A DNA stretch of 64,000 bases. Origin: Escherichia coli. Its GTDB lineage: Bacteria; Pseudomonadota; Gammaproteobacteria; Enterobacterales; Enterobacteriaceae. Positions 42,460 to 57,100 of this stretch are shown here, in pieces. Positions within the stretch are counted from its first letter, which is position 1. Each line of letters starts with the position of its first letter. The DNA is taken from assembly GCF_024298765.1 (NCBI RefSeq), contig NZ_CP101210.1. One strand, 5' to 3'. The notes below the pieces were generated by a model that was given only the letters and a program-made list of their open reading frames with translations, was not told the origin of the DNA and did not search any database. The translations under genes were made by a program, and so were the position numbers.

Positions 42460-43294
42460 CAGGGCAAGATTACGAAAGCCCGCTCCCCGTAAGGACTGAC
42501 GCCAGGTAGTTTCTGTCCATAGCTGCCCTTTCTATTCAAACGTGAAATCAATAAGTTCATCAGGGACATCACAAACAATATGAAGACGGGTTTCTTCTCT
42601 GCCGTGACTCTTTTCACTAATTGAGTAACTGTCGTGCTCTGGATTATTTAATTCTTTCAGCGGAAATTTTTCCTCAAAGGCTTTATTAAGCCGCCACCTG
42701 ATTTCCTTTTACAGCGAATAAATAATCACCTCCCTGTTTTTGTATCTTCTCTGCAATATCTTTCTGGCAACTCATCGCATCAGTTGTGATGATTTTTCCT
42801 TTAATATCCAGCATGTTAAGAAGTTCAGGGATAGCTGTAATTTCATTGGATTTCTCATCCGTCCTGATCTGTCCGATGACCAGACTGTGCATTGTTGAGA
42901 ACGCACTAATGACATGAATCGCTCCCCTGCGGCGACTCTTGTCATAAGAATGCCGGAGCGTTTTTCCATCAATTGCAATAACGTCTTTATCATCTGAAGA
43001 ATGGCAGTCACGCATCCAGTTAATAAAGCACTCGTGAAATTTTGAAGGACTGATACAGGATACAACTCTGGCGATGGTATCGTGAACAGGAATACCATTT
43101 TAAAAATCACCATATTGTTTTAAAAAATCGAGATGTGTTTCCCCAAAATCCTCTATATCTTCCCAACCATCTGCACCAGAAATAACGGCACAAATAGTCA
43201 ACAGTAGAATATCCGACAATTTATGTTCCACTTTTCCAGGATTGTCTGTAATCGGGAATAACAGAAATATGTTCCATCAATTTTTTAAGTACCA
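42460..43294 (-). pseudogene. H-repeat (ISAs1-family) transposase pseudogene, copy 1: internal deletion plus nonsense/frameshift
   Basis: Aligns to the intact copy at 45108-46244 but lacks about 330 bp near the 3' end, has the 1-bp insertion shared with copy 3, and a stop (ttttaaaa in place of ttttcaaa) near 43100. Confidence 0.85.
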
Positions 43295-43424: not shown

Positions 43425-43531
43425 CGTGATCTTTCCCTGAGAGGTACAGGAACTGCGGGAGGAACTTTATCAGGTTAAACAGGGGTTAAGGGGATGCGGA
43501 ACGGGATGTTTAGTGTGCTGAACGAAAGCTA
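43425..43531 (+). pseudogene. SymE-like toxin gene remnant (internal deletion)
   Basis: Retains the leader and GTG start context and the 3' end of the intact copy at 46375-46725; central part deleted, early stop. Confidence 0.7.
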
Positions 43532-43587
43532 AATAATAAAAAAGCCGGGAAGATCTTATCTTTCCCGGCCATCTTGCCATACATTAA

Positions 43588-44022
43588 TTATTTATGAATA
43601 TAATATAACTGAACATCATATTCATTATCACTTAAAACTATTAGTCGATCGGGAAATGTAAATGCTAATGAAAGATCATATGTTTCATTTATCGAAAACA
43701 AACTCAATATGAAATTTGAAAAATTTTCGACATGAAGAGATATGCAAACATCTCCATTATAGAATATATTGCAAAGAATATCTTTTTTCACATTCAGTGT
43801 ACTTTCAACATCTCTCGCTAGATCATTAATATTTAAAGGTAAATTGAAAACTCTCCTTTCAATAATATTATCGGTTTTATTTATTGCCATTAGCATTTCT
43901 CGATGCCACATGAAGTCATTCTTACGTAAGAATGATACATCAAAGGAAGTGACACCATTTAATTTAGAAGCATAATCTTTTGCTCTAATTAAATTTAATT
44001 TATCTTCAAGGCTAATTTTCAT
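43588..44022 (-). CDS. Putative Rhs-toxin immunity protein (orphan cassette 1)
   Basis: 144-aa low-GC ORF starting 4 nt before the stop of the orphan toxin reading frame; typical rhs-CT/rhsI arrangement. Confidence 0.6.
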   Translation of the reverse strand: MKISLEDKLNLIRAKDYASKLNGVTSFDVSFLRKNDFMWHREMLMAINKTDNIIERRVFNLPLNINDLARDVESTLNVKKDILCNIFYNGDVCISLHVENFSNFILSLFSINETYDLSLAFTFPDRLIVLSDNEYDVQLYYIHK

Positions 44023-44470
44023 AATATATATGATGATCCTTAGTTACAGGGTCATTGATCTTCTGATATCTATCACTTTTGAAATCGTATGTTCTAGGAT
44101 CAGCGCCCGGTTTAGGTTGTCCTGCATGTGCGTGAGGGCCAGGTGCCCTAGGATCTGCCGTGTGCTCGACTACAACTTTCTTACGTCCGTAGGCATCTGT
44201 ATATTCATAATATCGCCCATGAGACCCTAAATCTTCCGAATATTTATAATTTGTTTGTCCCCTTCTTCTAGGATCATTTCCAACGGTCCATTGCCTATTA
44301 GGTTGCTGTGAACGAGGTATGCCCGCAAGATCTTTTGCTTTATTTAGTGCCTGACGACGGTTTCTTAATTCACCACATTTAAGACCAAGCGGATCTATCC
44401 AGCTTACTGGATTAGGCGCGTAAGCATATAAGTTTAGCCCCCCCGCCAGCCCTATCGGGTCGGGTTACGT
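44011..44470 (-). pseudogene. Orphan rhs C-terminal toxin remnant (no start codon; in-frame stop before the DPxGL motif)
   Basis: Reverse-strand frame reads ...[46 protein letters not shown] followed by a 125-aa unique domain ending at the immunity gene; not in the ORF track because it lacks a start. Confidence 0.7.
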
Positions 44471-44634
44471 AAATGTTCCACAGTCCGAGTCGTAGTACCT
44501 CAGAAGGTTGCAGTGCAATCCCGCCTTGCGACATCAAGGCATAGTTTCAGAAAAAGTAAGGAGCAATCACCATACCCCAATTCACTGGGTGCTAAATAAT
44601 ATCTGGTAACATCCCTTACTTCAATTCTATTTCA

Positions 44635-45030
44635 TTACAACTTCTTTACTTTCCATATTCTTTGCGCAGCTAAAAAAGATACTCCTTTGAACCAAGACGC
44701 ACATTCAATAACTTGTTCCCATGAATATATTTTATGTGAGCTAAATTTTATCGATTCATCTTGGTTCATTATCTCAATAAAATAATATCCTTTATTATAA
44801 TCTCTTTTTTCTATTCTATCTTCAGCTCTTGCCGAACGTATAGAAATAACACAATCATCTAATAAACAAAATCTTTTCTTTATAATCGCATCATCTTGGT
44901 TCCATGGATTTGTACTTGCCATTTGTTCTGATTGTTTCAGCTCATTCACTACTGTATACCAAATAGCTTCGGTATCACTTGCCTTTGCATTCTCTCTATC
45001 AGACTCGGATCTAAATATAATTTTGTCCAT
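44635..45030 (-). CDS. Hypothetical protein, possibly an orphan immunity gene
   Basis: 131-aa low-GC ORF between H-repeat copy 2 and the orphan toxin remnant; no recognisable motif. Confidence 0.4.
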   Translation of the reverse strand: MDKIIFRSESDRENAKASDTEAIWYTVVNELKQSEQMASTNPWNQDDAIIKKRFCLLDDCVISIRSARAEDRIEKRDYNKGYYFIEIMNQDESIKFSSHKIYSWEQVIECASWFKGVSFLAAQRIWKVKKL

Positions 45031-45107
45031 TTTAATAATCCAAATGTAAATTACTTAAAATACCCTCTGCCTCATTCCAGGCATTGACATGGGAACCCAG
45101 GGAAAGA

Positions 45108-46244
45108 TTACGAAAGCCCGCTCCCAGCAAGGACTGACGCCAGATAGTTTCTGTCCATGGCTGCTTTTCGCATCTTACGTCTTAACCCTGCCTTGAATAC
45201 CTTATCATTCGTCAAAATATTAATAGCGATGTGCCGTATCCCTGAAAATAATTCTGCTGCATTTCCTCTTCTTATTTTGCAGTCGTCTTCATTCATTACC
45301 ACGTCCAGACGCCAGTGCAGCTTATTCTCCACGTGCCAGTGGTTTCGGATTGCTGTGGCGAACTTCTCTGCGGTTAAATCAGCAGAACTGATATAATATC
45401 TGACCGTCATTTCTGGCTCTTTCTTTTGTTCTGCTATTATTGACCGAAAGGAGACTGCCACGCATAATTTCTTCAGACCTTTCCATTCAAACGTGAAATC
45501 AATAAGTTCATCAGGGACATCGCAAACAATATGAAGACGGATTTCTTCTCTGCCGTGACTTTTTTCACTAATTGCGTAACTGTCATGCTCTGGATTATTT
45601 AATTCTTTCAGTGGGAATTTTTCCTCAAAGGCTTTATTAAGCCGCCCCTGATTTCCTTTTACAGCGAATAAATAATCACCGCCCTGTTTTTGTATCTTCT
45701 CTGCGATATCTTTCTGGCACCCCATCGCATCAGTTGTGATAATTTTTCCTTTAATATCCAACATGTTAAGAAGTTCAGGGATAGCTGTGATCTCATTGGA
45801 TTTCTCATCCGTCCTGATCTGTCCGATGACCAGACTGTGCATTGTTGAGAACGCACTAATGACATGAATCGCTCCCCTGCGGCGACTCTTGTCATAAGAA
45901 TGCCGGAGCGTTTTTCCATCAATTGCAATAACGTCTTTATCATCTGAAGAATGGCAGTCACGCATCCAGTTAATAAAGCACTCGTGAAATTTTGCAGGAC
46001 TGATACAGGATACAACTCTGGCAATGGTATCGTGAACAGGAATACCATTTTCAAAATCACCATATTGCTTCAAAAAATCGAGATGTGTTTCCCCAAAATC
46101 CTCTATATCTTCCCAGCCTTCTGCACAAGAAATAACGGCACAAATAGTCAACAGTAGAATATCCGACAATTTATGTTCCACTTTCCAGGCTTGTCTGTAA
46201 TCGGGGATAATAGAAATATGTTCCATCAATTTTTTAAGTTCCAT
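45108..46244 (-). CDS. H-repeat-associated protein (ISAs1-family transposase), intact copy 2
   Basis: 378-aa ORF of the YhhI/YdcC/YbfD H-rpt type; element left end about 45094 (aagattacgaaagcccgc). Confidence 0.9.
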
Positions 46245-46374
46245 TTTGTTCTCCTTAATTATGTAAGGAGTATTTGACCATGTATACGCAATAAAAAACA
46301 GCTTCAGGTAATGAGGAATATCTCAATTTTTAAACATAAAATGCGAATTATTTAGTACAAAAAAGCAGCGTTAC

Positions 46375-46725
46375 GTGATCTTTCCCTGGTTAATCATGGC
46401 TGAACACGATATTACGCCAGAAATCACCATTTCCAAAACACAGCGCCGCTATAAAGTCGGCTATGTCAGAGCCCGCCACATAAACAGCAAAACCTACATG
46501 ACCACGTACTACTCACGACACCCCAGCCTGAACCTCAAGGGCGACTGGCTGAAAGAGGCCGGATTTGATACCGGGCGGGGTGTCACGGTGAAGATTTCGG
46601 AGGGGTGCCTGACCATCATCGCTGACAGTGACGAGGTGCAGGAACTGCGGGAGGAACTTTATCAGGTTAAACAGGTGGTTAAGGGGATGCGGAGCGGGAT
46701 GTTTAGTGTGCTGAACGATAATTAA
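46375..46725 (+). CDS. SymE-like toxin (AbrB/SpoVT-fold type I toxin family), intact copy
   Basis: 116-aa ORF from GTG (or 109 aa from ATG at 46396); contains the SymE-family core LKGDWLKEAGFDTGRGVTVKISEGCLTI. Confidence 0.75.
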   Translation: MIFPWLIMAEHDITPEITISKTQRRYKVGYVRARHINSKTYMTTYYSRHPSLNLKGDWLKEAGFDTGRGVTVKISEGCLTIIADSDEVQELREELYQVKQVVKGMRSGMFSVLNDN

Positions 46726-48940: not shown

Positions 48941-49080
48941 TTTGTTCTCCTTAATTATGTAAGGAGTATTTGATCATGTATAAGCAATAAAAAACAGCTT
49001 TAGGTAATGAGGAATATCTCAAATCTTAAACATAAAATGCCAATTATTTAGTACAAAAAAGTAGCGTTACGTGATCTTTC

Positions 49081-49570
49081 CCTAAAACGCAGACCCAGTT
49101 GTGCATAGTACACATGGTACGCAACAGCCTGCGGTTCGTGACGTGGAAAGACTATAAAGCGGTAACCCGTGACCTGAAACAGGTTTACCGCGCGGCCACG
49201 GAAGAAGGCGTGTTGCAGGCGCTGGATGCGTTCGGGAAGGAATGGGATGCACGGTACCCGCAGATAAGTCGCAGCTGGCGGGCAAACTGACCGAATGTTG
49301 CCACCTTCTTCGTGTACCCGGAGGCGATCCGAAAGGTTATCTACACCACTAACGCAATCGAATCGCTGAATAGCGTCATCAGACATGCGATAAAGAAAAG
49401 GAAAGTGTTCCCGACAGATGAATCGGTGAAAAAAGTGGTGTGGCTGGCTATCCAGTCAGCCTCACAGAAATGGACGATGCCACTTCAGGACTAGCGGATA
49501 GCCATGAGTCGCTTTATTATCGAGTTCGGTGACCGCCTTGACGGTCACTTCTGAGAAAGGCATTTACACA
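49081..49570 (+). mobile_element. IS256-family (mutator-type) transposase gene remnant, 5'-truncated and frameshifted
   Basis: ORFs 49099-49290 and 49312-49494 encode the C-terminal part of an IS256-type transposase (...YPQISRSWRAN / IRKVIYTTNAIESLNSVIRHAIKKRKVFPTDESV...); begins abruptly at the shared leader sequence. Confidence 0.75.
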
Positions 49571-49947: not shown

Positions 49948-51753
49948 TTATTTACGCCGAGTTATTTTTGCATTATCAGAAAGAACAATATCACCTTTCA
50001 CAGTCAATTCATCTATATGGTATCGAGGGTTTGTTACCCACTCTAATTGCTCGTTAGGTACATCTGTTTCCACATAATCTCTACCTTTCCCACGACCTAT
50101 TTGATATTTCGCCTCTATGTCTACTTGACTGAGTGGTTTTTTATTCGCAGGTTCCAAATATACACGACCGTTATCATGCGCCTTAATTATCCCACTTTCA
50201 GCAATCGCATTTGAACCTTTACGATTAGTATAATGCCGCACACGAGTAGTTCCATTACAGAGCTCTTTTTTTAATCCGAGTGGATCAATATATTTCAGCG
50301 GATTAGGCGCATAAGCATATAAGTTCAACCCACCCGCCAGCCCTATCGGATCCGTTACAATGAACCGCCCGACATCCGGATCATAGTACCTGTGCAGATT
50401 GTAATGCAGCCCTGTTTCCCTGTCGAGGTACTGTCCCTGGTAGCGCAGGTTCTGCTCCACCCTGCCGTGGTCCTTCTCCTGTATCGTGTTACCCCAGACC
50501 TGATACCCCGTCTCCCACACGATTTTCCCGTCACTGTCCGTCATCTCTTCCGGCGCGCCGTTCACATCCGTGTGAAAATACAGTATCCGGTTCGGGCCCT
50601 CTTTGCCCGCCTTATCCACCCGCGCCAGCGGTTCATAACTCCCCGGGTCCCTGTAGATGTACAGGCTGTCTGTTCCCTCCGGCCTGCTCTCCTGCGCCAG
50701 CCGCATTCCGTCCCATAAAAATGCCGTCCGGTTGTACGGTTTACCGTCAGGGCTGATGTGCTGTTTTTCCGTCCGCCTCCCCAGCGCATCGTACACATAC
50801 CGGTACGTTCCCCGCGCTGTCGTCACTTCCACCATCCGGTGTTCCGCATCATAACGGTAACTCTGCGTGCCGCTCCGCCCCTCCTTTTCCACCGCACGGC
50901 CAAATTCGTCGTAACGGTAGTGCACACCACGGTAAGACATCAGCCGGTTGAACGGCACCACGCTGTTTTCTGCCGTGGCCCTTTCCCCCGCGCGCCGCCC
51001 CAGCAGGTTTCCCGCCGCGTCGTACTGCCAGCTCGCCAGATACCCCTCATCCTCCGAGCGGCACGCCGTGATGCGCCCCGTGGGGTCGTAGAAGTAATCC
51101 GTTTCCCCCCGCCGGCTGTGCCGCGTCTTCAGCAGTTCATCCTCGCCACTGTAGCTGTACTGCCGGTCCGTGAACGTCTCCGGTACCACCCCGCGCATCC
51201 CGCTGTATGTCTCCCTGCGCTTCAGCCGCCCGGCGGGGTCGTAAAGCTGCCGCGTGCTCAGTCGCCCCTGACTTCTGAGCACTTCACGGTGCAGGGCGTC
51301 ACGAGTGAACTCGCTGATGACCTCCCGGTCCAGATTTATCTGCTGGAGATGGCCGCTGCCGTAGTACAGATGACGCTGCGTTCTGCCGTCCGGAAAGGTG
51401 GTGGCTGTCCGGTTGCTGAGTTCATCGTACTGATGGGTCAGGACGCCCTGCGCCGTCTCCTCAGTCAGCATCCGCCCCAGTCTGTCGTAACTGAAACGGA
51501 TAATCTCCGGTGCGTCTGTTTCCCCGGCATCCGACCGTCGGCGGCGGATTTCCAGTAACTGGTCTGCCGCATCATGGACGTATTCCGTACGGCTATCGGC
51601 TGTCTCCTTTGCCGTGAGCCGGCCCGCCGCATCACGTGCCAGCCGGTGGCGGATTTCACCGCCCCGGTCCCCGGTGAACACCACTTCCGTGACCGCGTTC
51701 AGCGCGTTGTAGCGGTACGTCTGGCGGCAGCCGTCGTGCTGCCAGCGCAGCAT
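49948..51753 (-). CDS. Orphan rhs fragment: about 480 aa of Rhs core plus a distinct C-terminal toxin domain
   Basis: YD-repeat core near-identical to the main rhs, then DPIGLAGG...DPLGL and a unique roughly 108-aa tail (KKELCNGTTRVRHYTNRKGSNAIAESGII...); rhs homology starts at DGCRQTYRY, so the track Met is fortuitous. Confidence 0.8.
   Translation of the reverse strand: MLRWQHDGCRQTYRYNALNAVTEVVFTGDRGGEIRHRLARDAAGRLTAKETADSRTEYVHDAADQLLEIRRRRSDAGETDAPEIIRFSYDRLGRMLTEETAQGVLTHQYDELSNRTATTFPDGRTQRHLYYGSGHLQQINLDREVISEFTRDALHREVLRSQGRLSTRQLYDPAGRLKRRETYSGMRGVVPETFTDRQYSYSGEDELLKTRHSRRGETDYFYDPTGRITACRSEDEGYLASWQYDAAGNLLGRRAGERATAENSVVPFNRLMSYRGVHYRYDEFGRAVEKEGRSGTQSYRYDAEHRMVEVTTARGTYRYVYDALGRRTEKQHISPDGKPYNRTAFLWDGMRLAQESRPEGTDSLYIYRDPGSYEPLARVDKAGKEGPNRILYFHTDVNGAPEEMTDSDGKIVWETGYQVWGNTIQEKDHGRVEQNLRYQGQYLDRETGLHYNLHRYYDPDVGRFIVTDPIGLAGGLNLYAYAPNPLKYIDPLGLKKELCNGTTRVRHYTNRKGSNAIAESGIIKAHDNGRVYLEPANKKPLSQVDIEAKYQIGRGKGRDYVETDVPNEQLEWVTNPRYHIDELTVKGDIVLSDNAKITRRK
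50362..51735. repeat. 1.37-kb direct repeat, copy A (orphan rhs core)
   Basis: Essentially identical to 52880-54253 (offset 2518 bp); the antisense track ORFs 50392-50718 and 50758-51558 recur identically at 52910-53236 and 53276-54076. Confidence 0.9.
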
Positions 51754-51774
51754 CTGCCCAACCGCAGCGACACG

Positions 51775-51978
51775 CCGGTGATCAAAATCAGCGCCAAATG
51801 GCTGAGAGAAGCGGGATTTGAGATCGGCACGGGCGTTACCGTGAAGATCTCGGAAGGCTGCCTGATCCTGCTTGCAGATAACAACGGAGTACAGGAACTG
51901 CGCAGGGAACTTTATCAGGTTAAACAGTCTGTTAAGGGGATGCGGAACGGGATGTTTAGTATGCTGAACGATAATTAA
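51775..51978 (+). pseudogene. SymE-like toxin gene 3' fragment
   Basis: Encodes ...IKISAKWLREAGFEIGTGVTVKISEGCLILLADNNGVQELRRELYQVKQSVKGMRNGMFSMLNDN; 5' part replaced by the orphan rhs junction. Confidence 0.7.
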
Positions 51979-52441: not shown

Positions 52442-55400
52442 TTAGTTGTCGTGTGATGAATTGAATGGGAACGATGTACGTACAGAACCGTCGGGTTTTA
52501 CAACAACCCTTGCCATATCTGGAACTACCTCTGTCCCATCAGGTAAATAACCTCGACTTTTTATATTTGTAGGCAATGGCACATCATGCACACCTGGTCC
52601 TTTTTTGGCAACAGAAGCAATAAAATCAGCAGCAGAATTATCATCGAGATATTGTCCAACTTGATGACCTTTATTTCTGGCACGATCAATTAACTGATTT
52701 GGTTTCATTTTCTGTCCGTGTTCAGAAAAGGTGTGACCGTATGTAGGCTTACTTTTTGGATTTCCCCATTTGAAGTCAGATTTAGGACACAATCCAAGTG
52801 GGTCGATCCATGACAGTGGATTAGGTGCATACTGATATAAGTTTAACCCGCCTCTCAGCCCTATCGGGTCCGTTACCATGAACCGCCCGACATCCGGATC
52901 ATAGTACCTGTGCAGATTGTAATGCAGTCCCGTTTCCCTGTCGAGGTACTGTCCCTGGTAGCGCAGGTTCTGCGCCACCCCGCCGTGGTCCTTCTCCTGT
53001 ATCGTGTTACCCCAGACCTGATACCCCGTCTCCCACACGATTTTCCCGTCACTGTCCGTCATCTCTTCCGGCGCGCCGTTCACATCCGTGTGAAAATACA
53101 GTATCCGGTTCGGGCCCTCTTTGCCCGCCTTATCCACCCGCGCCAGCGGTTCATAACTCCCCGGGTCCCTGTAGATGTACAGGCTGTCTGTTCCCTCCGG
53201 CCTGCTCTCCTGCGCCAGCCGCATTCCGTCCCATAAAAATGCCGTCCGGTTGTACGGTTTACCGTCAGGGCTGATGTGCTGTTTTTCCGTCCGCCTCCCC
53301 AGCGCATCGTACACATACCGGTACGTTCCCCGCGCTGTCGTCACTTCCACCATCCGGTGTTCCGCATCATAACGGTAACTCTGCGTGCCGCTCCGCCCCT
53401 CCTTTTCCACCGCACGGCCAAATTCGTCGTAACGGTAGTGCACACCACGGTAAGACATCAGCCGGTTGAACGGCACCACGCTGTTTTCTGCCGTGGCCCT
53501 TTCCCCCGCGCGCCGCCCCAGCAGGTTTCCCGCCGCGTCGTACTGCCAGCTCGCCAGATACCCCTCATCCTCCGAGCGGCACGCCGTGATGCGCCCCGTG
53601 GGGTCGTAGAAGTAATCCGTTTCCCCCCGCCGGCTGTGCCGCGTCTTCAGCAGTTCATCCTCGCCACTGTAGCTGTACTGCCGGTCCGTGAACGTCTCCG
53701 GTACCACCCCGCGCATCCCGCTGTATGTCTCCCTGCGCTTCAGCCGCCCGGCGGGGTCGTAAAGCTGCCGCGTGCTCAGTCGCCCCTGACTTCTGAGCAC
53801 TTCACGGTGCAGGGCGTCACGAGTGAACTCGCTGATGACCTCCCGGTCCAGATTTATCTGCTGGAGATGGCCGCTGCCGTAGTACAGATGACGCTGCGTT
53901 CTGCCGTCCGGAAAGGTGGTGGCTGTCCGGTTGCTGAGTTCATCGTACTGATGGGTCAGGACGCCCTGCGCCGTCTCCTCAGTCAGCATCCGCCCCAGTC
54001 TGTCGTAACTGAAACGGATAATCTCCGGTGCGTCTGTTTCCCCGGCATCCGACCGTCGGCGGCGGATTTCCAGTAACTGGTCTGCCGCATCATGGACGTA
54101 TTCCGTACGGCTATCGGCTGTCTCCTTTGCCGTGAGCCGGCCCGCCGCATCACGTGCCAGCCGGTGGCGGATTTCACCGCCCCGGTCCCCGGTGAACACC
54201 ACTTCCGTGACCGCGTTCAGCGCGTTGTAGCGGTACGTCTGGCGGCAGCCGTCCGGATTTATCTGCTCCGCCAGACGGTCCAGCACGTCATGGCGGAACC
54301 GGTAGCTTTCTCCGTTCTCGTTTGTCAGCGTGACCAGACGCCCGTAAGCATCGTACCCGAACGCCGTCCTGCGCCCCGTCGCGTCTGTCCGGCTGCGCAC
54401 CCGGCCCTGCCCGTCCCGCTGCCAGCGCGTTATCCTCCCCATCGGGCTGGTGTACTTCACCAGCCTGCCCGCCGCGTCCGACTGGTAATTCACCGTGCGG
54501 CCGTCCGCCAGTATCACCTCCGTCAGGTGGCCGCTGTCGTCATACCCGTAGCGCGTGCTGTGGCTCTGCGCGTCTGTCATCCGTATCAGCCGCGTGCGTT
54601 CGTCGTAGAACCAGGCCGTCTGCGAGCCGGAACAGTCCGTGTGCCGCATGAGCTGCCCGTCTTCGTTCCACTGAAGGTATTTATTCCCCCCGCGCGCATC
54701 GGTTATCTGCACCACCTGGCCGTGGCGGTCATACTGATACCGGGTGTTCTGCTGCAGCGGGTCGGTCACCGCAAGAAGATTGCCGCGTTCATCGTACTCA
54801 CAGCACCAGCTGTTCCCCGCCGCGTCCACCTCCGTTTCCGGCTGGTGCCACACCGGGTGCCACTGTGTCTGTGCCACCCGCCCCAGCGGGTCGTGCGTCT
54901 CCGTGATATGCCCCTGCCGGTCATACACATAGCGCCATTTGCCGCCCTGCGCATCGGTCATTCCCAGTAACAGCCGTTCTTCGTCGCTCCAGCGGAACGT
55001 CGTCACCTGCCCGGCTTCGTCCTGGTACGCCGTCACCTGATTCTGCGCGTCCCACTGATGATAACGCGTGCGCCCCAGCCCGTCCGTCACGCACAGCCTG
55101 CGTGACGCCAGGCTCCACGCCAGCCGGTACTGTTCACCGCTGTCCGTGTGGTGCCCCGTCACCCGCCACGCTGCGTCATCCGGGCCTTCATACCAGCTCC
55201 ACTGGTAATAATACCCTTCGCCGCCCGGCTGGCGGTGCAGGGTCATGCAGTGGTTTTCGTCGTAAGCAAACTCGCGCAGCAGGTGTCCCGTGCTGTCGTA
55301 CACGCCGTTCAGGTCGCCGGCCTCGTCATAGCGGTAACGACGCAGCAGTAAAGGAGCCGTCTCAGGGAAATGCTGATAAATCTGTGTCACCCGCCGGGGA

Positions 55401-57100
55401 TGCGCCGCCAGTTCATAATGCAGACGGATGCACGGACGCTGCTGTTCACCGCTGATTTGCGTGATGCGCCCCAGCTCGTCGTAGTACAGATTCAGACAGT
55501 TGCTGTTGCGGTCGCCCAGCATTTTCAGCCGCTGGCGCTGCGGGTGATGCGGGTCGGCTTCAAACAGAAAAAACTGCCCGTCATCGCTGCTGATAAGCCA
55601 GTGCCCCTGCTCACCCCGCCTTACCGCCAGTCCTTCGCCGGGGCTGTAAAACCCGCTCCCCGGCAGCACGGCCTCCATATCCAGGCGTCGCCCCATGCCC
55701 GACACAAAGGTCATGCAGTTTTCGTCAGCAGTACCCGGCGTGCGCCCGAGGCTGACTTCATACATCACGCTCCAGCCCTGCCCGAACATCCCTTCCGTGC
55801 GGTCGTCACGACTGCTGTACACGCGCTGCCAGTCCAGCGGAAAGTGGCCCGGCAGACTGAAATCGAAGTCATCGTCATCGGCCAGATATTTGGCTCCGGT
55901 GGCGGCATTGACCGGATGCGGAAGGGCACTGATGGCCTTCTGCGTCATCACCCCCATCCCGACACTGGCAGCAAAACAGGCGATTTTAGAAAGCATTTTG
56001 CCCGGGCGAAGAAACATCAGCGCCACGGTTGCCACCAGGGTTATCTGCGACCTGCCGCTTCTGATATCCCTGACCACCAGTAACGGACCGCCAATGCGGA
56101 CATCCGGTGACACAAACGCCCCGTTCCCCGGCTCATTCACCACCCTGGCCTCGCAGGTGCAGCGTGCCCCGCTGCGTGCCGCCGGCTGGCTGTTGATACG
56201 CACATCCCGCGCGCCTTCCGCGATATATTCCGCTGCGGGCGGTTCATCATCGCCTTTGAACAGATTACTGATGCTGCCAATAACCGCATTCACTCCCTGA
56301 AAGGCGGTTTCCAGCATACCGTCCGGACTCAGCAGGTTAAGGGCCGTTCCCAGGGGGTCATCCAGAAAGGCGGCTTTTTTTTGTGCGAGAAACTGCGTCA
56401 GTGAGGAGGGATGTTTATGGCAGTCGATTTTATCGTCAGGGGTCGGGGTGGAGCCCGGGGCCGCACTGGCCACGGTGGGCTGCCATAGTTCCGACACAAA
56501 ATGTGTCACGCCATCCACCATTTCAGAACGCCCTTCTTCCGTACTGAGCTGGTCGTGCAGCGCCCGGGACATCAGCACAGGCCCTGTCACCGGGTTAACC
56601 GCCAGGGCTATGGCCCCCGCCATTTCCAGATATTCCCCGGCCACATCCAGGAACGTTCTGGCATCCTCCTGACGCTGCGCTTCTTCCTGTTCCGCCTTCG
56701 CCTGCGCCTCCTGCGCCTCAATGTCCTGCCGCGATGCCGCAGTCGCCGCGGCCCGCGCGGCAGGTTTGCTGTTGATCCATGTGTCGCCAGAGCCGGTGAG
56801 GATGTAACCTTCAATCTGAGGCGGGAAAAGCATATTTGCGAGGTCTGAACAGACTTCGCTGACCGTGTCTGTCACGCCGGTGTACACCATCGCCACACCC
56901 GCCACAAAACCGGTCAGCACGACGGCCGTGCACCCCATCGTGATCCCCACTGACGCCGCCAGTAACGAGGTTGTGCCGACAATGAGGGCATCAATAACGA
57001 CATTTGCGGCCACCTCCAGCACCGCCCCCAGCACATCTGCCATAAACGACGTATGCAGCAGGGCATCACCCTGCCTTGCCGCCCAGAATGCCTCTTCCAT
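52442..57100 (-). CDS. Full-length Rhs polymorphic toxin with N-terminal prePAAR-like motif and hydrophobic segment (T6SS effector-like), YD-repeat shell and variable C-terminal toxin domain
   Basis: 1552-aa ORF; N-terminus MEEAFWAARQGDALLH fits AARxxDxxxH, followed by about 55 hydrophobic residues and PAAR-containing segments; YD repeats; core ends PxxxxDPxGL (WIDPLGL) about 115 aa before the stop. Confidence 0.85.
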   Translation of the reverse strand: MEEAFWAARQGDALLHTSFMADVLGAVLEVAANVVIDALIVGTTSLLAASVGITMGCTAVVLTGFVAGVAMVYTGVTDTVSEVCSDLANMLFPPQIEGYILTGSGDTWINSKPAARAAATAASRQDIEAQEAQAKAEQEEAQRQEDARTFLDVAGEYLEMAGAIALAVNPVTGPVLMSRALHDQLSTEEGRSEMVDGVTHFVSELWQPTVASAAPGSTPTPDDKIDCHKHPSSLTQFLAQKKAAFLDDPLGTALNLLSPDGMLETAFQGVNAVIGSISNLFKGDDEPPAAEYIAEGARDVRINSQPAARSGARCTCEARVVNEPGNGAFVSPDVRIGGPLLVVRDIRSGRSQITLVATVALMFLRPGKMLSKIACFAASVGMGVMTQKAISALPHPVNAATGAKYLADDDDFDFSLPGHFPLDWQRVYSSRDDRTEGMFGQGWSVMYEVSLGRTPGTADENCMTFVSGMGRRLDMEAVLPGSGFYSPGEGLAVRRGEQGHWLISSDDGQFFLFEADPHHPQRQRLKMLGDRNSNCLNLYYDELGRITQISGEQQRPCIRLHYELAAHPRRVTQIYQHFPETAPLLLRRYRYDEAGDLNGVYDSTGHLLREFAYDENHCMTLHRQPGGEGYYYQWSWYEGPDDAAWRVTGHHTDSGEQYRLAWSLASRRLCVTDGLGRTRYHQWDAQNQVTAYQDEAGQVTTFRWSDEERLLLGMTDAQGGKWRYVYDRQGHITETHDPLGRVAQTQWHPVWHQPETEVDAAGNSWCCEYDERGNLLAVTDPLQQNTRYQYDRHGQVVQITDARGGNKYLQWNEDGQLMRHTDCSGSQTAWFYDERTRLIRMTDAQSHSTRYGYDDSGHLTEVILADGRTVNYQSDAAGRLVKYTSPMGRITRWQRDGQGRVRSRTDATGRRTAFGYDAYGRLVTLTNENGESYRFRHDVLDRLAEQINPDGCRQTYRYNALNAVTEVVFTGDRGGEIRHRLARDAAGRLTAKETADSRTEYVHDAADQLLEIRRRRSDAGETDAPEIIRFSYDRLGRMLTEETAQGVLTHQYDELSNRTATTFPDGRTQRHLYYGSGHLQQINLDREVISEFTRDALHREVLRSQGRLSTRQLYDPAGRLKRRETYSGMRGVVPETFTDRQYSYSGEDELLKTRHSRRGETDYFYDPTGRITACRSEDEGYLASWQYDAAGNLLGRRAGERATAENSVVPFNRLMSYRGVHYRYDEFGRAVEKEGRSGTQSYRYDAEHRMVEVTTARGTYRYVYDALGRRTEKQHISPDGKPYNRTAFLWDGMRLAQESRPEGTDSLYIYRDPGSYEPLARVDKAGKEGPNRILYFHTDVNGAPEEMTDSDGKIVWETGYQVWGNTIQEKDHGGVAQNLRYQGQYLDRETGLHYNLHRYYDPDVGRFMVTDPIGLRGGLNLYQYAPNPLSWIDPLGLCPKSDFKWGNPKSKPTYGHTFSEHGQKMKPNQLIDRARNKGHQVGQYLDDNSAADFIASVAKKGPGVHDVPLPTNIKSRGYLPDGTEVVPDMARVVVKPDGSVRTSFPFNSSHDN
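52880..54253. repeat. 1.37-kb direct repeat, copy B (main rhs core)
   Basis: Essentially identical to 50362-51735. Confidence 0.9.

Follow-up and report, generated by a model that had tools for sequence, protein, structure and literature searches.

A 131-codon reading frame in the rhs locus of Escherichia coli is most probably the cognate immunity gene (rhsI) of an Rhs C-terminal (Rhs-CT) toxin, stranded by a rearrangement bounded by an ISEc1 element; we put the probability of this reading at about 0.88. The reading frame lies in a stretch of 64,000 nucleotides, here called the window, in which the cognate toxin is reduced to a stub of 21 codons, and the same 66 nt are what is left of the toxin in 61 genomes. 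An orphan immunity gene with a lost toxin had already been proposed in a preliminary description of the locus. This proposal is supported by the toxin stub, by a cut that falls on the ISEc1 terminus and by the conserved pairing of homologues with one toxin elsewhere. The coordinates of the features are collected in Table 1.

Table 1. Features around the 131-codon reading frame in the window, and loci outside the window that carry the toxin–immunity pair
Feature	Location	Strand	Basis or content
Probable orphan rhsI-type immunity gene, intact	44635..45030	minus	ATG to TAA, 131 aa (131 codons)
Stub of the cognate Rhs-CT toxin	45032..45097 (66 nt)	minus	Last 21 codons (GSHVNAWNEAEGILSNLHLDY) and TAA; alignment to intact toxin genes
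ISEc1/H-repeat copy	45098..46388	minus	Shared terminus; far end approximate, from repeat family D3
Intact 378-aa ISAs1-family transposase in the ISEc1 copy	45108..46244	minus	ORF and annotation
Spacer 3′ of the immunity gene	44545..44634	minus	Part of the conserved cassette; terminator-like hairpin at 44578..44560
Next orphan module, Rhs core stub fused to HNH/EndoVII-fold CT toxin	44012..44544	minus	Translation, annotation, NCBIfam Rhs_assc_core match
144-aa ORF, presumed immunity gene of the HNH orphan toxin	43588..44022	minus	Overlaps the toxin end
SymE-family ORFs	46375..46725 and 51574..51978	plus	
SymE-family fragment	43441..43542		
Entomohabitans teleogrylli SCU-B244	L021, 1728-6396		Full-length Rhs of ~1400 aa, CT and immunity protein 100% aa identical to the window ORF
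Escherichia sp. E1V33	L022		Toxin–immunity pair at contig end
Pseudomonas sp. MWU16-30317			Full-length Rhs of ~1460 aa, CT and 45%-identical immunity protein
Gilliamella sp. wkB112			Orphan CT and 62%-identical immunity protein in a long orphan array
Metagenome contig L004			PAAR-Rhs of 1538 aa, 80%-identical CT and 66%-identical immunity protein
Metagenome contig L007			Orphan CT and immunity gene adjoining an Imm8 gene
Metagenome contig L008, cut at 5′ end			Same CT and immunity pair
L019			Orphan CT and immunity pair

A conserved reading frame in an orphan rhs array

In the window, ybgI, dtpD, phr and ybgA (37.9-42.4 kb) precede an rhs locus, which comprises one full-length rhs gene (52442..57100, minus strand) along with several orphan fragments of rhs and three H-repeat copies (ISEc1, ISAs1 family). 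The reading frame belongs to the array of orphans at this E. coli locus, which is of the rhsC type and adjoins ybgA-phr. The region around the reading frame is 100% identical in E. coli strain 104 and a further 60 complete genomes. The preliminary description had reported a stand-alone ORF of 131 aa with low GC content, placed between an H-repeat copy and an orphan toxin remnant. This is confirmed for the minus strand: the ISEc1 transposase gene lies upstream and an Rhs core stub with an HNH toxin lies downstream, and the GC content is 31.6% (GC3 23.5%) compared to 50.4% for the window. In RefSeq, the product is labelled as hypothetical protein WP_000357803.1.

SymE-family (type I toxin-like) ORFs or fragments are found on the opposite strand beside the rhs immunity genes of the locus, one per orphan unit, and this pattern recurs at rhsE-type loci of other strains. 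The interval from the third H-repeat copy to the following orphan immunity gene contains a degenerate piece of another transposase (49048..49494). In strain 104 this piece is annotated as ‘transposase, internal stop, partial’.

Homologues of the reading frame are known at 52-99% identity, and pairwise dN/dS values across the family are 0.15-0.26 wherever dS could be estimated; for the window copy compared to the Salmonella copy, dN is 0.10 and dS is 0.60. Purifying selection thus acts on the reading frame across the family. The homologues, together with these ratios, indicate that the reading frame is a real gene. A chance reading frame in AT-rich DNA would explain why no family or motif matches, but at the base composition of the ORF itself the chance of 131 stop-free codons is ~2.5e-6. 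Moreover, 42 representative homologues have a similar length, and a deeper alignment gives a confidently predicted fold (see below). The stop-free probability, the homologues and the dN/dS values refute this reading, and its likelihood is practically nil.

According to the preliminary description the protein has no obvious motif, and this statement holds for Pfam, NCBIfam and PDB sequence searches. Pfam and NCBIfam scans gave zero family matches, and none of the named immunity families in these two collections (Imm*, SUKH etc.) matched above its curated threshold. When 45 family members were scanned with Pfam, scattered single matches but no consistent family were obtained. The sole match in a PADLOC scan was a 17-bit match to Cas3b, which we judged to be spurious. 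PDB sequences were compared with the single protein, with a 13-sequence profile and with a 45-sequence profile, and in all cases only Siglec-8/poxvirus noise was returned (E ~0.05 or higher). A literature search on the protein accessions found nothing, nor did we find a paper naming the immunity or toxin family.

The next orphan module begins ~90 nt downstream of the reading frame. Its core stub reads …YYDSDCGTFT*PDPIGLAGG…DPLGL, an in-frame stop included, and is followed by an HNH/EndoVII-type C-terminal toxin at 44012..44455, annotated as ‘HNH/endonuclease VII fold putative polymorphic toxin’. Given the short distance, the reading frame might be considered a partner of this HNH orphan, or else of the main Rhs toxin of the window. 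However, the immunity gene follows the toxin in every pair examined here, and the HNH toxin has a downstream 144-aa ORF of its own (no family match in Pfam or NCBIfam). Since this overlapping ORF is its presumed immunity gene, the 131-aa ORF does not pair with the HNH toxin. In Entomohabitans and E1V33, different orphan toxins come after the reading frame, while the upstream toxin is always the same. The main Rhs toxin is likewise a poor candidate, as the cognate toxin has no other copy in the window. Either partnership is very improbable, and that with the HNH orphan was rejected on the grounds of the 144-aa ORF and the constant upstream toxin.

The toxin stub and the ISEc1 breakpoint

A single nucleotide separates the ATG of the immunity gene from the stop codon of the toxin stub. 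It matches the 3′ end of the gene for the toxin CT of E. coli D7, E. coli IH5 and Entomohabitans with 100% identity. In minus-strand alignments to two other E. coli loci, identity to the toxin stops at 45097/45098. Three H-repeat copies of the window, at 42460, 45098 and 47793, share the terminal sequence CAGGG(A/C)AAGATTACGAAAGCCC. Because position 45098 is the first base of this sequence, which is the same in all three copies, the toxin breakpoint coincides with the IS terminus. A tblastn search with the toxin CT across the window found the 21-codon stub alone and no other copy.

On the far side of the ISEc1 copy, unrelated rhs material was found, namely a SymE-like ORF and then a different immunity gene with a different Rhs CT. 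It therefore seems likely that the toxin gene was cut by an IS-associated rearrangement or deletion, and not just by insertion of the element. We propose that a rearrangement ending at the ISEc1/H-repeat terminus would have removed the toxin gene save for its last 66 nt, and that the immunity gene, the spacer and the next orphan module would have survived this event intact. The preliminary description had assumed a lost toxin cassette in front of the reading frame. The immunity gene is indeed located at the place expected from this assumption, but the cassette was not wholly lost, since the last 21 codons and the stop codon survive.

The stop codon of the transposase gene lies 77 nt upstream of the reading frame and on the same strand, as would be expected if the reading frame were cargo or a part of the ISEc1/H-repeat element and did not belong to an rhs cassette. 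Against this, the reading frame is outside of the element, whose terminus at 45098 is set by the three copies in the window, and homologues are found directly after Rhs toxins with no IS nearby. In D7-type genomes, the IS is on the opposite side of the ORF. Boundary mapping places the reading frame beyond the ISEc1 terminus, and membership in the element was rejected as extremely improbable.

Intact toxin–immunity pairs and their distribution

The preliminary description had proposed to look for homologues downstream of rhs or other polymorphic-toxin genes. Ten independent pairs were examined, and in each of them the homologue is located 3′ of the same toxin domain, starting 1-12 nt past its stop codon. 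The intact arrangements in D7-type E. coli, Entomohabitans, Pseudomonas, L004, L007, L008 and Gilliamella have a gap of 1-2 nt. As expected for an rhsI gene, the ORF in these arrangements directly follows, in the same orientation, an Rhs-CT toxin whose start comes after the DPxGL core motif. Three of the ten pairs follow complete, full-length Rhs proteins (Entomohabitans, Pseudomonas and the metagenome locus L004). Pairing is preserved along with sequence divergence: from 100% down to ~21% identity, all toxin-adjacent homologues (10/10) follow the same toxin motif. The opposite pattern, homologues consistently in non-toxin contexts, was not seen, and among the homologues examined none was found in a context unrelated to polymorphic toxins.

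The family is small: when 1.84 billion representative proteins were searched exhaustively with a profile, only 42 relatives were obtained at E ≤ 1e-3, all of ~120-140 aa. The distant relatives P0053, P0072 and P0046, with ~21-31% identity to the window protein, are each encoded 2-12 nt past a protein ending in the toxin motif AASEIAGxLG … GWR(D/N)D…GH … PH(V/I)(N/H) … LFY/LLY. One of the toxins upstream of these relatives is an RHS-repeat protein of >2200 aa. When one genome per species was scanned (~100,000 species), four loci only were found, those of Entomohabitans teleogrylli, Escherichia sp. E1V33, Pseudomonas sp. MWU16-30317 and Gilliamella sp. wkB112.

Copies of the ORF that lack the toxin stand among SUKH, SMI1_KNR4, SUKH-3, Imm8 and DUF7716 genes; the relative P0044, for example, shares an island with SMI1_KNR4/SUKH and SUKH-3 genes. 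The orphan copy of Salmonella enterica (L005, GCA_006489615.1, 7001-7400) is 78% identical and lies in a T6SS locus, with an Rhs-WHH/DUF7716 pair before it and an Imm8 gene after it. A 3′ frameshift has removed the conserved C-terminal helix region, leaving a protein of 112 aa, and this cluster has 102 member sequences.

The cassette, consisting of toxin CT, immunity gene and the spacer with its hairpin, is at least 98.7% identical at the nucleotide level in the window, D7-type E. coli, E1V33 and Entomohabitans, and the homology ends within the next orphan, inside the motif coding for PDPIGL. For the spacer taken alone, identity among four cassettes (three genera or species) is at least 98%. 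Given the cassette identity between E. coli and Entomohabitans and the identical immunity protein, the two genera are likely to have exchanged the module horizontally in the recent past. The terminator-like hairpin with a T-run (44560..44578, minus strand) is positioned 57 nt past the stop codon of the ORF and was observed in four of four aligned cassettes, with one stem substitution in D7.

Within E. coli, the ORF sequence was found in 112 of 5426 complete genomes. In the 61 genomes with the arrangement of the window, the toxin query matched the 66 nt of the stub alone. Another 50 genomes carry a 98.7%-identical copy of the ORF in an rhsE-type locus near nhoA/pptA. There, the ORF is 1 nt past an orphan toxin CT that is itself preceded by an 87-nt Rhs core stub. 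A decayed allele (P0010) has an internal deletion and encodes 86 aa. A full-length Rhs armed with the cognate CT was found in one of the 5426 genomes, that of E. coli IH5 (L003, NZ_CP168949.1, 6001-10786), where a 1553-aa Rhs ends in the toxin CT. The immunity gene of IH5 retains its first 41 codons only, after which a primase(CHC2)/XerC element follows, and no second copy of the immunity gene was found in this genome. An integrative element of the same primase/XerC type directly adjoins the CT and immunity module of the 50 genomes (E. coli D7, L002, 8001-14061; L009, L010). These observations suggest a link between the primase/XerC element and the toxin–immunity cassette.

The toxin, its probable immunity protein and the possible role of the orphan gene

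The ancestral partner of the immunity protein would be an Rhs C-terminal toxin. The cognate toxin CT has ~119 aa and the motif RRAARQAASEIxGxLG…FRGGP…GWRDDxLGH…G(S/P)HVNxW…LHLDY. No Pfam or NCBIfam model of it was found. By sequence as well as structural comparison, it is homologous to chain A (CdiA-CT) of PDB entry 5T86, and the domain is found on Rhs, Hint-domain and further polymorphic toxins. The 5T86 CdiA-CT is reported as a toxin of the BECR fold, probably of the RNase type; according to a preprint, no mechanism or activity has been published for this entry (bioRxiv 10.64898/2026.05.10.723254).

An AlphaFold model of the immunity protein with 13 sequences was weak (pLDDT 65). A second model, of a toxin-(G4S)6-immunity fusion, was calculated with a 43-row alignment including seven natural pairs. 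Both halves were confidently predicted in it, with an overall pLDDT of 88.5 and ~88-98 per 10-residue block in the immunity half. A deeper alignment may by itself account for the higher confidence. At a pTM of 0.51, the placement of the two halves relative to each other is not certified. The predicted immunity fold is mixed alpha/beta, with strands, short helices and two C-terminal helices. No resemblance to any solved fold was detected, including chain B of 5T86 (CdiI). The toxin domains are homologous, yet the immunity protein encoded here is apparently unrelated.

In the native cassette, toxin stop codon and immunity start codon are 1 nt apart (TAAAATG), a spacing which makes co-translation of both probable. 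By analogy to Rhs-CT/RhsI and CdiA-CT/CdiI pairs, the immunity protein would bind the toxin domain and block its activity in the producing cell (PMC3150448). In the window, the translational coupling to the toxin is gone. A promoter scan of the interval between IS and ORF found no sigma-70-like promoter on the minus strand. Between the co-oriented transposase gene and the ORF a terminator is absent, and the terminator-like hairpin comes after the ORF. If the gene is still expressed, be it by read-through from the transposase gene or otherwise, its product would shield the cell from neighbours delivering the toxin on a full-length Rhs. Armed Rhs proteins with the cognate toxin occur in other Enterobacterales and beyond.

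The reading frame might instead be a dying leftover of the immunity gene of the lost toxin, unexpressed or functionless and intact only because the deletion is recent. The 61 copies with the arrangement of the window are 99-100% identical, and due to this near-identity their intactness may reflect recent common descent and not selection; many of them are poultry isolates, which is consistent with recent clonal spread. The missing promoter-like site and the lost coupling to the toxin gene point in the same direction, as do the decayed orphan copies, namely the Salmonella frameshift allele and the 86-aa deletion allele. In addition, the window allele has a serine in the conserved RPAR motif where most homologues carry a proline. 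On the other hand, the ORF is not truncated, and no residue that is invariant in its close family has been lost. The position of the co-oriented transposase gene, with no terminator in between and a hairpin after the ORF, also speaks against this view. Furthermore, orphan immunity genes are expressed and protective in other systems (PMC3150448), and armed toxins with a 100% identical immunity protein exist in another genus. On balance we consider a functionless leftover unlikely, albeit a possibility that should be taken seriously.

A more far-reaching proposal is doubtful in our view. It holds that the family is undescribed and has a fold absent from the PDB that would block a 5T86-type BECR toxin in a manner unlike CdiI/SciX-type proteins, and also that the ISEc1 junction rewired expression to give a stand-alone shield kept in poultry-associated E. 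coli lineages. If the fold does differ from the CdiI/SciX type, this would be an independent invention of immunity to one toxin fold.

The reading of the ORF as a stranded rhsI agrees with what has been described for orphan rhs-CT/rhsI and cdiA-CT/cdiI modules (Poole et al. 2011, PLoS Genet, PMC3150448; Koskiniemi et al. 2014, PMC3967940). As in those modules, a small AT-rich ORF comes right after a polymorphic C-terminal toxin, the orphans form an array downstream of a main rhs gene, and IS elements disrupt orphan toxins. The cassette is likewise near-identical across strains and genera, with homology ending at the core stub of the next orphan, which codes for DPxGL. Orphans of cdiA-CT/cdiI are comparable motif-to-motif cassettes, reaching from VENN to VENN, and an orphan CdiI was expressed and protective, and RhsI acts against no Rhs-CT other than its cognate one (Poole et al., PMC3150448). 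The difference is that here the toxin half is down to 66 nt and the immunity half alone survives. Compared to the CdiA-CT/CdiI complex of E. coli A0 34/86 (PDB 5T86), delivery is here by Rhs (probably T6SS/PAAR) and not by CdiA/CdiB. The Rhs2–SciX pair of Salmonella Typhimurium, a validated effector–immunity pair that binds EF-Tu, also has an Rhs-borne toxin structurally like 5T86_A and a downstream immunity gene (bioRxiv 10.64898/2026.05.10.723254). Orphan immunity islands are represented by the orphan immunity to a Rhs NADase in Serratia (PMC10539506) and by arrays in V. cholerae (PMC5361080), for which protection against non-self attackers has been proposed. The islands share with our locus the presence of immunity genes that lack a cognate effector, and P0044 is located in such an island of SUKH-family genes. 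They differ in that the window copy was left in place by a deletion and was not acquired in a dedicated island.

A toxin-stripped orphan RhsI is an ordinary and already well-described kind of event, and the concept was predicted by the polymorphic-toxin literature; the family itself is unnamed. Our analysis assigns a putative function to a recurrent ‘hypothetical protein’ (WP_000357803.1 / WP_023155668.1) that ~2% of complete E. coli genomes encode. A second outcome is the definition of an unnamed toxin–immunity pair, which consists of a small 5T86-like toxin domain and an immunity family of 120–140 aa that is without a Pfam model. The locus is a clean example of the erosion of an rhs orphan array, in which a breakpoint at an H-repeat/ISEc1 element disarmed the cell and the shield remained. 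If the orphan gene is expressed, it would shape which strains are able to coexist with attackers carrying the cognate toxin.
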